Of a stretch of DNA of 64,000 bases, positions 18,694 through 52,335 are shown piece by piece. The number at the start of each line of letters is the position of its first letter. The stretch's first letter is position 1. The notes below the pieces were generated by a model, which made no database searches, was not told where the DNA came from, and saw nothing but the letters and a program-made list of their open reading frames with translations. Position numbers and translations under genes: made by a program. Source of the DNA: an uncultured Gammaproteobacteria bacterium (lineage in GTDB: Bacteria > Patescibacteriota > Patescibacteriia > Magasanikbacterales > UBA922); NCBI GenBank assembly GCA_964519725.1, contig CAZFKS010000001.1:49406-113405 (forward strand), written 5' to 3'.

Positions 18694-18722
18694 TTGACTT
18701 TTTCTTTCTACTATGGTATATT
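18694..18722 (+). promoter_or_regulatory. promoter TTGACT-17-TATATT driving the high-GC lipoprotein gene
   Basis: read directly; AT-rich native-like promoter, GGAG RBS 8 nt before ATG 18806. Confidence 0.5.
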
Positions 18723-18805
18723 GTTTTGTCCTGAACCAGCTTCTGTGAACTTTTATAAGTTTAGAGGAGCTGGGTCAGACCGAGCACAACCATTGGAGTC
18801 ATTCC

Positions 18806-19246
18806 ATGTACCGTTCCGTGCTCGTCGTTCTGTTCACCGTTCTCTCCACTTCCTGCACCACGACCCAGGTCGTCACCGACCCGCCGGCGCCCGCCTACGT
18901 CCGCGACCCGCGGCTCGGAGGCGACCCCGAGGCCCCGGAACCCGAAGTACTGAAGATCTTGGTGGAGCAGTTGAGCTCCGTTCCGGGCCTCTACCTCTTC
19001 AACCCGAAGAAGGGTGAGCTCGCCCCCGTGGAAAACGGCTACATCTACCGCTCGAAGGCGCACGTGATCACGACGATCACGGACCTGAGCGGAGAGTGGT
19101 ACTGCCAAGCCCGGGTGAGCTACTGGTTCACGAAGGACCAGACGAAGCGGTACTACTACCGCCTGAAGGGCTTCTCCATCAACGGCGGTGAGCCGTGCAG
19201 CCTGGAGCTACTCCTGAAGGACGAAGACCTGTCACCGCCCGACTAA
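18806..19246 (+). CDS. high-GC (~65%) secreted/lipoprotein-like hypothetical protein
   Basis: signal peptide MYRSVLVVLFTVLSTSC; GC3-rich codon usage unlike every neighbouring gene; alternative frames 18679..19017 and minus 18761..19108 are GC-frame artefacts. Confidence 0.45.
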   Translation: MYRSVLVVLFTVLSTSCTTTQVVTDPPAPAYVRDPRLGGDPEAPEPEVLKILVEQLSSVPGLYLFNPKKGELAPVENGYIYRSKAHVITTITDLSGEWYCQARVSYWFTKDQTKRYYYRLKGFSINGGEPCSLELLLKDEDLSPPD

Positions 19247-19293
19247 TGTCGCTCGTGAGTCGAGGCGACGCCGGCGCGGAGAACGAACACGAA

Positions 19294-19365
19294 AACCCGT
19301 TCGCCCGCCTGCTCTTAATCTAAATTTGGATTCAGAGCAGGAGGAAAAGCGAACGGGTTTTTTGT
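19294..19365 (+). terminator. large compound hairpin terminator (AACCCGTTCGC...GCGAACGGGTT + T-run)
   Basis: 11-bp outer stem with inner 8-bp stem, followed by TTTTTTG. Confidence 0.6.
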
Positions 19366-19484
19366 TTACGACTTAATATTAAGTCGATTTTTTATCTCAA
19401 TCTAAACAAAAATAAACTTTAAAATAATTAATATTTTCTTGAGGAAAATTTAAGCTGTACTTTGTTACTATTAATTTGGTGGAA

Positions 19485-19559
19485 GGGGCGAGTCCTGGTC
19501 GGTTCAGAGCTAGCTTCGTCAATCTAGCGCATGGGGTTCGACTCCCCCTCGCTCCACCA
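19485..19559 (+). ncRNA. tRNA-like RNA with alanine identity elements (G3:U70, A73, encoded CCA, canonical T-arm) but aberrant 10-nt anticodon loop
   Basis: acceptor GGGGCGA/TCGCTCC with G3:U70, T-loop TTCGACT, 3-bp D-stem, anticodon-stem CTAG palindrome enclosing CTTCGTCAAT; no NGC anticodon. Confidence 0.5.
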
Positions 19560-19570
19560 TCAAACATCTC

Positions 19571-19599
19571 TTGACAAAGCCGAGAAAATACTTTATATT
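19571..19599 (+). promoter_or_regulatory. consensus promoter TTGACA-17-TATATT
   Basis: read directly, 12 nt after the tRNA-like CCA. Confidence 0.55.
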
Positions 19600-19605
19600 T
19601 AAAGT

Positions 19606-19676
19606 ATTGACGAAGCTGGTTCGTATGGGACCGATCACCATACCCCATCCAAGAAGGCCCTGCAAAGGGCTTTTTT
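19606..19676 (+). ncRNA. candidate small RNA (~70 nt) bounded by the promoter at 19571 and terminator GCCCTGCAAAGGGCTTTTTT
   Basis: promoter and intrinsic terminator read directly; no convincing ORF or tmRNA tag frame. Confidence 0.3.
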
Positions 19677-50193: not shown

Positions 50194-50196
50194 TCT

Positions 50197-50226
50197 AAAA
50201 GCCCTGTGAATACAGGGCTTTTTTAA
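50197..50226 (+). terminator. rho-independent terminator AAAAGCCCTG-TGAATA-CAGGGCTTTTTT
   Basis: read directly. Confidence 0.6.
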
Positions 50227-50254
50227 TATTTGGAATTTATCCACACACCAAAAC

Positions 50255-50283
50255 TTGATGTGAGAACAAATGTTCTCTATACT
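50255..50283 (+). promoter_or_regulatory. lexA promoter TTGATG-17-TATACT with LexA (Cheo-type) box GAGAACAAATGTTCTC (50262-50277) filling the spacer
   Basis: 16-bp perfect palindrome containing GAAC-N4-GTTC read directly. Confidence 0.7.
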
Positions 50284-50322
50284 ACTTTTATACGTCAAAC
50301 ATTAATCTTATTAAGCACTGAT

Positions 50323-50907
50323 ATGGCCCCTGACCTTTACCAATCTCGCAAACAAAAGCTCCTCAATTATTTCAACAAATTCAAACAAGTCCCAACCTAT
50401 GATGAAATGGTCAAACTGTTTGATCTAAGGTCCAAAGGTTCGCTCCACCGGTATGTAGAAAAATTTATTGAAGATGGAATTTTAGAAAAAAATGCAACTG
50501 GAAAATTAGTTGCGACCGAGAGAATGTTTGGCCTAAAAGTTTTGGGAGTAGTGCAAGCTGGATTTCCAACAACGGCTGAAGAAGATGCCAGTGCCAAAAC
50601 CGTAAGCTTAGACCGTTGGCTCATTGAACACCCTCAAGCCAGTTACTTGCTCACTGTTTCTGGAGACTCAATGATTGATGCCGGTATTATGCAAGGTGAT
50701 ATGGTCATTGTGGACCGCACCAGGAATCCTAAAACTGGAGATATCGTGGTGGCTGAAGTTGACCATGATTGGACCATGAAGTATTACATTAAAAGGGGAG
50801 AGCGCGTAATTCTCCGCCCTGCCAACCGCAATTATCCAGACATTCACCCCCAATTAGAGCTTAAAATCGCTGGGGTCGTGGCCAGTGTTATCCGTAAATA
50901 CTTATAA
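50323..50907 (+). CDS. lexA: LexA repressor (S24 peptidase)
   Basis: N-terminal wHTH, Ala-Gly cleavage region, SGDSM and K in ...TMKYYIKRG; start ATG 50323 downstream of promoter. Confidence 0.75.
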   Translation: MAPDLYQSRKQKLLNYFNKFKQVPTYDEMVKLFDLRSKGSLHRYVEKFIEDGILEKNATGKLVATERMFGLKVLGVVQAGFPTTAEEDASAKTVSLDRWLIEHPQASYLLTVSGDSMIDAGIMQGDMVIVDRTRNPKTGDIVVAEVDHDWTMKYYIKRGERVILRPANRNYPDIHPQLELKIAGVVASVIRKYL

Positions 50908-50908
50908 T

Positions 50909-52153
50909 ATGAAAATGCCTGTTTCTGAAGCCAAAGCCATTGTTCACATTGATGGCGATGCTTTCTTTGCTAGTTGCGAACAAGCTGTTAACCCAAAACT
51001 TCAGGGCAAACCAGTAGTTGTTGGGGCTGACCGTGGCATTGCCACTGCTTTTAGCCAAGAAGCCAAGCAGCGTGGGGTGCGTCGCGGCATGACTAAACTT
51101 GAAATCCTCAGGATTTGTCCAGACGCTATCTTACTTCCCGGTGATTATGAAACTTACACCTTATTTTCCAAACGCATATTTGCGATCATGCGCCGATTTA
51201 CTGACCAAGTTGAAGAGTACAGCATTGACGAAGGCTTCATGGATATTACAGGGTTAGATAAAGTAGAAAAAATGTCTTACGCTGACATTGCCAAATTAAT
51301 TAAAAAAACCATTCAAACTGAATTAGGGATCACAGTCTCAGTTGGTCTTGCCCCAACCAAAGTCTTAGCCAAACTCGCCTCAACTAGTAGTAAACCAAAT
51401 GGCTTTGGTGTAATTACCCAAAAAGATTTACCTGAATATTTGCGCGATTTTTCTGTGGACACTATCTGGGGCGTAGGCCGGAACACGGCCGACTATATGC
51501 GCCGCCTTAGTATTTTTACAGCCTATGACTTTGCGGTTAAACCAATTGGGTTTATCAAAGATAATTTTACCAAACCACACCAAGACATTTGGTATGAATT
51601 AAATGGTCAATCAGTGTACAGTGTAATTTCTGAAGAAAAACAAACCTATGCTTCAATTTCTAAAACTCACACTTTTCACGCTCAAAAGGGGAGCCGGGCG
51701 TTGGTATATGCCGAACTAGTCACTAATCTAGAAAATGCTTGTGCCAAAGCACGTAATCATGATTTAGTGGCCAAACGAGTGTCTATTTTCTTAAAATCTG
51801 AATCATTTAATATTCAAGGACTCGAAGTAACTTTAGAACGCGCCAGTGCTTTTCCAATGGATCTATTAAGTGCGGTTAAGCCATTATTTGAAAAATTATA
51901 CAGTGATAAAGTTCAGTACCGTGCCACTGGCATTGTTTTATCTGACCTCACCGATGCTTGCGCTGTTCAAACGACTTTGTTTGAAGCCCCAACCACACTT
52001 TCCACCTTACAAAAAACTTACGAAGCCATTGATGCTCTTGCCCTCAAATTTGGCAAACACACGGTGCATAGTGCCAGTAGTTTAGCCAAAGAAATTAAAA
52101 AACCAATGGAACTAGCTAGTTTGCCATTGGTTTCCCTAGGATTTGTTCGTTAG
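50909..52153 (+). CDS. dinB: DNA polymerase IV (Y-family)
   Basis: IVHIDGDAFFASCEQ N-terminus; overlaps lexA stop. Confidence 0.8.
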   Translation: MKMPVSEAKAIVHIDGDAFFASCEQAVNPKLQGKPVVVGADRGIATAFSQEAKQRGVRRGMTKLEILRICPDAILLPGDYETYTLFSKRIFAIMRRFTDQVEEYSIDEGFMDITGLDKVEKMSYADIAKLIKKTIQTELGITVSVGLAPTKVLAKLASTSSKPNGFGVITQKDLPEYLRDFSVDTIWGVGRNTADYMRRLSIFTAYDFAVKPIGFIKDNFTKPHQDIWYELNGQSVYSVISEEKQTYASISKTHTFHAQKGSRALVYAELVTNLENACAKARNHDLVAKRVSIFLKSESFNIQGLEVTLERASAFPMDLLSAVKPLFEKLYSDKVQYRATGIVLSDLTDACAVQTTLFEAPTTLSTLQKTYEAIDALALKFGKHTVHSASSLAKEIKKPMELASLPLVSLGFVR

Positions 52154-52154
52154 C

Positions 52155-52335
52155 TTGAGAGGGGTTGTGCAGCAGGACCCCTCAGAAGAGGAGGGTGTCG
52201 AAAGACTGGCCCGGGAACGCCGTATCCCGGCTCCAAGACCGTACCGGTCAGTCTGAGGGGGGATTGAGATATTCAACTGACTAGCGCGGTCTGTATTCTA
52301 TCGGCATATCCAAGGGGTCCTGCCGCACAAAAGCA
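52155..52335 (+). ncRNA. GC-rich (~58%) structured element: 18-bp closing helix (52165-52182 / 52313-52330, one A.C mismatch) enclosing 129 nt with a 9-bp inner helix and hairpins
   Basis: base pairing read directly; no ORF; family unknown. Confidence 0.35.

Follow-up and report, generated by a model that had tools for sequence, protein, structure and literature searches.

What connects five short GC-rich segments that lie between the genes of one bacterial contig? The stretch analysed here, 64,000 nucleotides of contig CAZFKS010000001.1 (assembly GCA_964519725.1), is referred to below as the window. A first-pass annotation picked out five segments in it, islands 1 to 5, and suggested that they had arrived by a common insertion mechanism or from a common donor, or that they formed a family of GC-rich structured RNAs. 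We find this unifying interpretation largely unsupported. The five segments are probably heterogeneous and without a shared mechanism, islands 1 and 4 being genes acquired by horizontal gene transfer (HGT) and islands 2, 3 and 5 antisense units. According to the model that we favour, islands 1 and 4 would be single protein genes, for a predicted lipoprotein and a purine nucleoside phosphorylase (PNP) respectively, transferred from bacteria of high GC content to soft spots between the genes of a conserved Magasanikbacteria backbone. Each would now form a separate unit, with an AT-rich sigma-70-type promoter, a GC-rich open reading frame (ORF) and an intrinsic terminator. Islands 2, 3 and 5 would be short transcription units opposite in strand to the suf and dinB genes: island 2 a native module, made up of a small hydrophobic peptide gene and a conserved long hairpin terminator, that was tandemly duplicated, and islands 3 and 5 structured non-coding RNAs with consensus promoters and terminators. 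The foreign DNA probably entered by natural transformation, followed by illegitimate or homology-assisted recombination. We infer the transcription and function of these units, and the native or foreign status of the variable bodies of islands 2, 3 and 5, from sequence features. The locus as a whole is read as ordinary HGT together with a few unannotated small transcription units, and one feature, the persistently high GC content at third codon positions (GC3) of the PNP gene, is left unexplained.

The window has an overall GC content of 43.1%, and its gene content is that of cellular housekeeping: the SUF iron-sulphur assembly operon, ClpB, DinB, FtsEX, a PPIase, tRNAs and a group I intron. 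In a search of 185,579 species genomes, the nearest ClpB-encoding loci were those of Candidatus Magasanikbacteria, in the Candidate Phyla Radiation (CPR; Patescibacteria). The closest relative (L015, DALYDF01) is a sister species with a ClpB identity of 91% and a GC content of 42%. Two others are GW2011_GWA2_56_11 (L003; 82% identity, 56% GC) and L014 (76% identity, 35% GC). Five further loci for the site of island 1 (L163-L167) were retrieved via FtsX homologues, L167 belonging to the genome of L015. A metagenome scan yielded no ClpB match above 68% identity. A phage origin of the window, suggested by the tRNAs and the group I intron, is rejected in view of the housekeeping genes and of the ClpB relatives, which are CPR genomes; searches against phage and plasmid DNA gave no matches, nor did a scan of viral contigs.

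Composition and placement of the five segments

The GC contents of the islands were recomputed as 60.7% for island 1 (18765-19365), 53.7% for island 2 (33134-33690), 57.3% for island 3 (35860-36105), 65.3% for island 4 (39630-40660) and 57.5% for island 5 (52155-52335). All five are therefore enriched relative to the 43.1% of the window, and the difference persists on proper computation, although the range is 53.7-65.3% and not about 58-68% as first stated, and the background is higher than the ~40% assumed. In 150-nt sliding windows (mean GC 0.431, standard deviation 0.062), only islands 1 and 4 exceed four standard deviations, with maxima of 0.70 and 0.713. The description as outliers thus holds for these two, but not for islands 2, 3 and 5, which peak at 0.59-0.61 (about 2.5-2.8 standard deviations) and are equalled by unlisted ordinary coding stretches at 31852-32119 (0.613) and 5353-5619 (0.593). 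The tRNAs of the window genome, at 58% GC, are also comparable to these three islands (54-57%). The choice of objects was nevertheless sound. Among coding genes, the only GC3 outliers are those for the lipoprotein (0.88) and PNP (0.86), all others lying between 0.25 and 0.55, and the spacers of at least 120 nt with a GC content above 0.5 are exactly islands 2, 3 and 5. Islands 1 and 4 are strongly atypical in GC3, and islands 2, 3 and 5 are mildly atypical in composition. The compositional observation is partly confirmed, being real yet overstated.

Each island had also been described as starting within a few nucleotides of the end of a gene or terminator and as leaving its neighbours intact. 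Flanking genes are indeed undamaged. The close start is seen for island 5, which begins 2 nt past the dinB stop codon, and for island 2, which begins right after the hairpin that follows csd, but not for islands 1, 3 and 4, where GC rises 60-105 nt past the upstream gene. The rise is preceded by an AT-rich promoter in islands 1 and 4 and by a conserved ancestral segment in island 3. On a map of genes and spacers, the spacers in the window are mostly 0-100 nt long, and any tolerated insertion necessarily begins near a gene end. Placement after gene ends with neighbours intact is therefore a survivorship effect in a compact genome, not a targeting rule.

Promoter-like sites were scored as matches out of 12 to the consensus. 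Strong sites are scarce (27 in 128 kb, counting both strands), and islands 1, 3 and 5 each have one of them, correctly oriented, at the 5′ edge. RNA folding was expressed as z-scores relative to dinucleotide shuffles, for which native coding controls give values of about 0.

The protein genes of islands 4 and 1

Island 4 contains a gene of 297 codons (39676..40569, plus strand, with a likely true start at 39688; GC 0.65). Its identification as a PNP is upheld by a match to Pfam PNP_UDP_1 (PF01048; E = 1.9e-37) and by full-length profile matches to PRK08202 (263.7 bits, cutoff 218) and TIGR01697 (243 bits, cutoff 197.1). It conforms to the PNP/PunA family defined by these three models in matching over its full length above the cutoffs and in having about the usual 290 residues, and departs from it in being very divergent (at most 49% identity), fast-evolving and high in retained GC3. 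The closest relatives found in 5.8 billion protein clusters are 45-49% identical. Three that were retrieved lie in genomes of 68-72% GC, where a gene GC3 of 0.88-0.95 is native and a MoaA-PNP-ThyX context is conserved. Some of the nearest matches are labelled Chloroflexota or Limnocylindrales, at an identity (45-49%) too low to name the donor. These neighbours in high-GC genomes would fit a high-GC donor lineage.

The gene is preceded by an AT-rich promoter-like sequence, TTGATT-17-TAAATT (39601..39629, plus strand), which was read by eye and scores 8/12, below the scanner threshold. It is shared with L015, and the region around it is 75-77% identical between the two. Downstream, the 3′ untranslated region (fold z = -3.9) contains a GC-rich hairpin, GGGAGCGC...GCGCTCCC (40607-40626, plus strand), also conserved in L015, and a terminator was detected by scanning at 40642-40661 on the same strand. 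All three thirds of the coding sequence (39688-40569) fold beyond dinucleotide shuffles on one or other strand (z -2.5 to -4.7), in contrast to the native coding controls.

The site of island 4 differs between relatives. In L003 the duf59 and fdx genes are about 50 nt apart and PNP is absent, so that the site is empty. In L014 the duf59/fdx spacer is filled by a GIY-YIG-like gene and a thioredoxin-like ferredoxin gene, and PNP is again absent. L015 has a PNP of 289 amino acids at the same site (60% GC, GC3 0.73), 45% identical to that of the window. At the DNA level the window and L015 are 75-90% identical over the flanks, falling to 50-60% within the island, and the AT-rich promoter region upstream and the GC-rich hairpin downstream are homologous. 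The two PNPs are reciprocal best hits and sisters in neighbour-joining analysis. Between the same two genomes, flanking genes show synonymous divergence (dS) of 1.1-1.6, which is saturated, and non-synonymous divergence (dN) of 0.03-0.24; the dN of PNP, 0.55, is several-fold higher. Synonymous-codon identity at conserved residues was measured as an excess over that given by each gene's own codon usage. The excess is +0.084 for PNP (p = 0.017) and +0.05 to +0.09 for the flanks. Since residual codon matching in PNP equals that in the flanks, the age of the PNP alleles is roughly that of the species split. On the simplest reading, PNP would have been acquired once, in the common ancestor of the window and L015 lineages after L003 had diverged, and entry before the split would have been followed by rapid evolution of the protein. 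Two separate captures at one site, to which the 45% identity and the retained GC might point, are disfavoured by the codon matching, the homologous junctions and the sister relationship.

L014 has two small GIY-YIG-like paralogues (5034-5369 and 7177-7506 of that locus; …YYVYILSS…VLYVGFTD…) lying in intergenic sites of its suf/fdx region. As judged by motif inspection only, the pair suggests free-standing homing-endonuclease-like genes as a further source of spacer insertions in the clade.

Island 1 lies beside a tRNA-Thr(CGU) gene (18587..18660, plus strand; ARAGORN and Rfam) which, with its terminator (18663-18686), forms the left border of the insertion site. All of the elements described next are on the plus strand. 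A promoter-like site, TTGACT-17-TATATT (18694..18722; 10/12), is followed by a gene of 146 codons (18806..19246; GC 0.63) with a predicted signal peptide ending in a lipobox (...VLSTS|C), and then by a terminator (19292..19371; z = -5.4) in the form of a long two-tier hairpin, with perfect 13-nt inverted arms and a 20-nt inner arm pair, and a T-run. GC content at the three codon positions of the gene is 0.59/0.42/0.88, the signature of a genuine coding sequence from a high-GC genome. In this gene and in that for PNP, GC is lowest at the second codon position, which real genes are expected to show. Homologues of the predicted lipoprotein were sought widely. A word-indexed search of 5.8 billion clusters found none, and an exhaustive HMMER search of 1.84 billion representatives gave no credible match, the sole remote one, to animal FLYWCH repeats (E = 9e-4), being judged spurious. 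No family was found in Pfam, NCBIfam, PHROGs or PADLOC, where there was just a spanin-like match at 0.027, and the viral-contig scan revealed no viral relative. The AlphaFold model was unusable (pLDDT 42).

The second half of the insertion (19485..19677) contains the inverted repeat I4 and folds with z = -6.7. It begins with a 75-nt element (19485-19559) that resembles the tRNA-like domain of tmRNA in its ends (5′ GGGGCGAGUCCUGG and 3′ CUCCACCA), and that has an 8-bp acceptor stem with G3:U and an 8-nt anticodon loop. Its Rfam tmRNA score of 18.6 bits is below the gathering score, and ARAGORN calls it at relaxed thresholds only. A second promoter (19571-19599; 11/12) and a terminator (19650-19677) delimit a putative RNA of about 75 nt, the 5′ end of which is complementary to the central arm of the tRNA-like element (17 nt, 88%).

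Neither the lipoprotein gene nor the second half of the insertion is present at the corresponding site in any of the five relatives (L163-L167). In three of them (L163, L165 and L166) the site is empty: tRNA-Thr(CGU) and its terminator lead directly to the ftsE promoter across a gap of 150-186 nt. L164 has instead a gene of 405 codons with no assigned function, and L167 a 582-residue ABC transporter, both with a native-type GC3 (0.27-0.34). Together with the empty site of island 4 in L003, this establishes the presence/absence polymorphism that had been put forward as a check on insertion. Comparison of the sites indicates that island 1 belongs to a stretch of about 1 kb inserted specifically in this lineage, at a soft spot 3′ of tRNA-Thr that has been used repeatedly. 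Of the hallmarks of tRNA-targeted integrative islands, just the position next to a tRNA fits; the ~1 kb insert has neither an integrase ORF nor an att-like repeat of the tRNA-Thr 3′ end. The tRNA-Thr of the window differs from those of L163, L164, L165 and L167, which are near-identical to one another, in the T-arm and at acceptor positions 5-7 and 66-68. The differences are mutually compensating, and the window gene looks like a replaced or converted allele adjoining the insertion.

An independent Logan assembly of SRR11567520 holds the genes of islands 1 and 4 in the same context. One contig of 3.3 kb (L001) covers both PNP junctions, and another (L002) covers the right junction of island 1, as far as ftsE, and begins within tRNA-Thr at about window position 18637. 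The break at the left edge of island 1 could mean strain-level heterogeneity in the sample, with an island-free path.

At the same intergenic sites, relatives hold other lineage-specific genes of ordinary GC, and gene-by-gene turnover between backbone genes therefore seems to be the general mode in this clade; the window seems special only in two arrivals from high-GC donors. L015 has extra native-GC genes between its backbone genes (1742-3777 and 7371-8000), three between clpB and fdx and one between nifU and sufS, again indicating frequent turnover of single genes.

Single-gene HGT and small genomic islands are described in Patescibacteria, mostly within the phylum, and have been attributed to competence and pili (PMC12455944). 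Islands 1 and 4 are new examples of this known process. Like those cases, they are single genes of atypical composition and patchy distribution in a conserved, streamlined genome, have putative functions in metabolic salvage and the cell envelope, and are not adjacent to mobility genes. Unlike most of the transfers in that report, which are between Patescibacteria, they have a GC3 of 0.86-0.88 and, for PNP, kin in genomes of 68-72% GC. They differ further in that the best identity of PNP is 49% and in that the lipoprotein is a complete ORFan. The locus provides a clean empty-site example of how foreign single genes persist between backbone genes, and one of them, PNP, has outlasted a speciation event with its foreign composition retained.

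CPR bacteria, whose genomes are tiny, live in dependence on other cells. PNP would plausibly give purine salvage to an organism unable to make nucleotides, and the gain of such functions is central to grasping the CPR lifestyle.

Antisense units in islands 2, 3 and 5

Island 2 had been described as a repeat-bounded cassette. The repeats are real: two 66-nt hairpins (direct repeat D1), 98% identical, lie on the minus strand at 33068..33133 (copy 1) and 33446..33511 (copy 2). Copy 1 is an intrinsic terminator with a stem and a U-run (-35.1 kcal/mol, z = -6.0). It would end unit a (2a), which is antisense to the suf operon and contains a small hydrophobic ORF of 75 codons (33177..33404, minus strand) with about one transmembrane segment (maximum KD19 2.24) and a GC content by codon position of 0.71/0.38/0.61. 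Copy 2 ends unit b (2b), in which a 33-codon ORF (33536..33637, minus strand; 0.59/0.29/0.74) follows an AGGAGG Shine-Dalgarno (SD) sequence and diverges from sufB, directly upstream of it. The body of unit b is not significantly structured (z -0.9/-1.3), and unit a matched no protein family in Pfam, NCBIfam, PHROGs or PADLOC.

Island 2 is not a recent foreign insertion. The 66-nt hairpin is found at the same post-csd position in L003, with four compensatory pairs, so copy 1 is native. In L003 it likewise terminates a small antisense ORF, of 52 hydrophobic residues with an SD site, which has no detectable sequence similarity to that of unit a. The framework of island 2 is thus, to judge from this comparison, native and conserved, and would have been tandemly duplicated in the window.

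Two known systems resemble island 2. As in integron cassettes, two unrelated ORFan-like small ORFs are each associated with a near-identical, imperfect hairpin of about 60 nt. Unlike them, island 2 has no IntI, its units would have their own promoters, and its hairpin is a U-run terminator, conserved at one chromosomal position in L003, where ClpB identity is 82%. A direct reading of the repeat as attC also failed to find R''/R' core pairs (RYYYAAC/GTTRRRY). It starts TAAAAAC and ends GTTGAGG in copy 1 or GTTCCCA in copy 2, so that only an AAC/GTT pair is present, and the U-run follows on the ORF strand. The second resemblance is to type I toxin-antitoxin systems. Unit a and its L003 analogue would be single-transmembrane hydrophobic peptides of 50-75 residues, encoded in stand-alone units with strong terminators between operon genes. 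They differ in that no overlapping antisense RNA partner was identified and no family matched.

Island 3 occupies the spacer between sufD and sufS and has two parts, both on the minus strand. The conserved 3′ module (35781..35890; z = -5.4) comprises an SD-like box, a hairpin and a terminator (35806-35786), and these left 110 nt are 75% identical to the same site in L015. The lineage-specific body (35890..36143) is a putative structured RNA of about 220 nt that includes a 72-codon ORF, with a promoter, TTGACA-17-TATTTT (36143-36115; 10/12), at its 5′ edge. Promoter and terminator bracket about 320 nt. The predicted fold is strong (-134 kcal/mol over 306 nt, z = -6.6), and the body by itself gives z = -6.7 (minus strand) and -5.0 (plus strand). 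No counterpart of the body was found in L015 or L003, and a sensitive Rfam scan of the island matched no family. In L015 the sufD-sufS spacer (in 9694-10882) holds an SDR gene and a membrane protein gene, both antisense and of native GC.

Island 5 was noted at first pass as a structured element, and this is borne out. It forms a candidate non-coding RNA gene of about 230 nt on the minus strand (52097..52363), with a promoter, TTGACA-17-TAGTAT (52363-52335; 10/12). The body is multi-branched, its arms at 52168-52183 and 52314-52329 pairing into a closing stem of about 22 bp, and a hairpin and U-run seen by eye within the 3′ end of dinB (52131-52097) could act as the terminator. Folding is stronger on the minus strand (z = -6.1) than on the plus strand (z = -4.0), and the minus strand has no ORF above 8 codons. 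No Rfam or phage match was found, and searching the window and 84 related loci (1.3 Mb) with a covariance model revealed no further copy. L003 has a different ORF at this site. The inverted repeat of 16-22 bp might suggest a miniature inverted-repeat transposable element; this identification was rejected, as the element is single copy in the window and in the 1.3 Mb of relatives and has no visible flanking duplication. The gene 3′ of island 5 (52401-52910) encodes a DEDDh/RNase T-like 3′-5′ exonuclease (PHROG E = 1.6e-20; PADLOC DEDDh E = 1.7e-8). The candidate RNA is thus flanked by dinB and a DEDDh exonuclease gene, both DNA-repair or nuclease genes.

Like cis-antisense or intergenic small RNAs of operons, islands 3 and 5 combine a compact, highly structured body of 200-300 nt with a consensus promoter and a terminator, and they would be transcribed antisense to suf and dinB. 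They differ in belonging to no Rfam family and in having no homologues found for covariation. We regard them as candidate new non-coding RNAs, and island 2 as a candidate conserved antisense small-peptide module. The two RNAs and the module in the suf operon could be regulatory.

Conservation and foreignness are therefore unevenly distributed. Universal conservation, which would mark the islands as ancient, is approached by island 4 (shared with L015), the hairpin of island 2 (shared as far as L003) and the left 110 nt of island 3 (in L015), but not by island 1 or the body of island 3. Conversely, the idea of inserted foreign DNA stands for islands 1 and 4, and does not extend to the conserved parts of islands 2 and 3, which are old or native.

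Weighing the explanations

A common insertion mechanism is not supported. Repeat comparisons of the islands and their borders found no repeat or border motif common to them, nor were there att-like or target-site repeats. No integrase, transposase, recombinase or IntI was found among the annotated genes between 16.9 and 53.8 kb, a few of which (e.g. 46641-50907) were unscanned. As to a common donor, the codon-usage correlation between the PNP and lipoprotein genes is 0.66. High-GC loci used as controls gave 0.76 +/- 0.09 within genomes and 0.68 +/- 0.11 between genomes, and the value falls within both distributions and does not discriminate.

Several observations weigh against the reading that we favour, of two transferred genes and three antisense units. 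At third codon positions, GC is raised in the bodies of islands 2a, 2b and 3 (0.61-0.74), and the signatures in 3-mers of islands 1, 2b, 3 and 4 intercorrelate (0.47-0.74) and do not correlate with those of native genes, although such statistics are noisy for segments of 150-300 nt. The bodies of 2a, 2b and 3 could also be foreign. Islands 2, 3 and 4 also repeat one architecture, in which the GC-rich body varies and the 3′ hairpin that follows it is conserved or duplicated, and this hints at a regularity beyond chance. The scanner called no promoter for the island 2 units, and the island 5 terminator was found by eye alone, its loop being larger than the scanner limit. The PNP GC3 values of 0.86 in the window and 0.73 in L015 are above the 0.53-0.63 predicted by a crude two-state amelioration model, which leaves an unexplained residue in a simple story of old transfer. 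Finally, the best ClpB identity among the relatives found is 91%, and comparison at the island 4 site draws on only three relatives (L003, L014 and L015), with fewer still available for islands 2, 3 and 5.

These compositional signals are what an alternative reading would build on, according to which all five GC-rich bodies are independent high-GC foreign fragments that entered by natural transformation and survived only between genes, native-looking promoters and terminators having been recruited or already been there. The bodies of islands 3 and 5 lack a counterpart in L015 and L003, although their frameworks have one, and natural competence is reported for CPR bacteria (PMC10187176; PMC12455944). 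However, native tRNAs reach an equal GC content, L003 carries a positional analogue of the island 2 unit, and no donor-like homologue was found for any of the small bodies. We consider this reading unlikely. A site-directed mechanism, either integron-like hairpin recombination or integrase-mediated tRNA targeting, that placed cassettes behind resident promoters and before hairpins would account for the two different small ORFs of island 2 with their near-identical hairpins, for PNP alleles that are very different yet have their junctions and 3′ hairpin in common, and for the position of island 1 next to a tRNA gene, with cargo that varies between relatives and a tRNA-Thr whose T-arm and acceptor stem are unlike those of all four relatives compared. 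We nevertheless hold it to be quite improbable. Besides the missing recombinase genes, attC core pairs, tRNA 3′ end repeats and border motifs, the units own their promoters and occur on both strands, the synonymous-site test points to co-divergence of PNP and its flanks and not to a swap, and the GC of other lineage-specific genes carried at these sites is native.

That the islands are a family of GC-rich structured RNAs was suggested by features that do exist: folding far stronger than in shuffled controls is seen for islands 3 and 5 and also for the hairpins belonging to islands 1, 2 and 4. But islands 1 and 4 are clearly protein genes, the bodies of island 2 are not significantly structured, and islands 3 and 5 have no similarity to each other in sequence or model. 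Nothing in the islands reached the Rfam gathering threshold, and sensitive scans of islands 1, 2, 3 and 5 returned only chance-level miRNA or snoRNA matches. A single RNA family is accordingly very hard to credit. Equally far-fetched is an artefact of assembly or binning, in which a low-GC contig would have had high-GC reads from a different organism spliced into it. The sequence does come from a metagenome-assembled genome, and one Logan contig begins inside tRNA-Thr beside island 1; on the other hand, the independent assembly reproduces both PNP junctions and the junction of island 1 with ftsE, and in L015, a metagenome-assembled genome from another sample, the site is occupied by a high-GC PNP that is homologous, as are its junctions. 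The inserts are, moreover, precise gene units with host-type promoters and terminators and intact flanks. There is also a slim chance of something less ordinary. The GC-rich bodies of islands 2, 3 and 4 might be exchanged or maintained within fixed frames, with an AT-rich promoter already resident on one side and a conserved hairpin on the 3′ side, as hairpin-anchored cassettes without a known integrase; and/or some force, such as selection acting on the structure or stability of the mRNA, or repeated conversion from a partner organism of high GC, might hold the PNP GC3 at 0.73-0.86 even though the genome around it is synonymously saturated; and islands 3 and 5 might be founders of new classes of CPR non-coding RNA. 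The reading of ordinary HGT with a few small native units leaves current views standing, and the attractive common mechanism is not there.

Some other features of the window lie outside the islands. A group I intron (24679-25086; Rfam 77.6 bits) splits the anticodon loop of tRNA-Thr(UGU); ARAGORN gives it a length of 333 nt, and an 11/12 promoter (24627-24655) lies just 5′ of this intron-bearing tRNA gene. A 646-codon ORF occupies the 5.7-7.5 kb region. Within the suf operon, in the nifU/sufC interval, there is an EVE-domain (PUA-like) gene (37653-38099; E = 5.6e-48) that is kept in L015. The spacer at 30713-31089 (377 nt, GC 0.39) folds beyond shuffles (z -3.7 and -3.5) and may harbour another unannotated RNA or small gene; a 67-codon ORF lies at 30933-31136.

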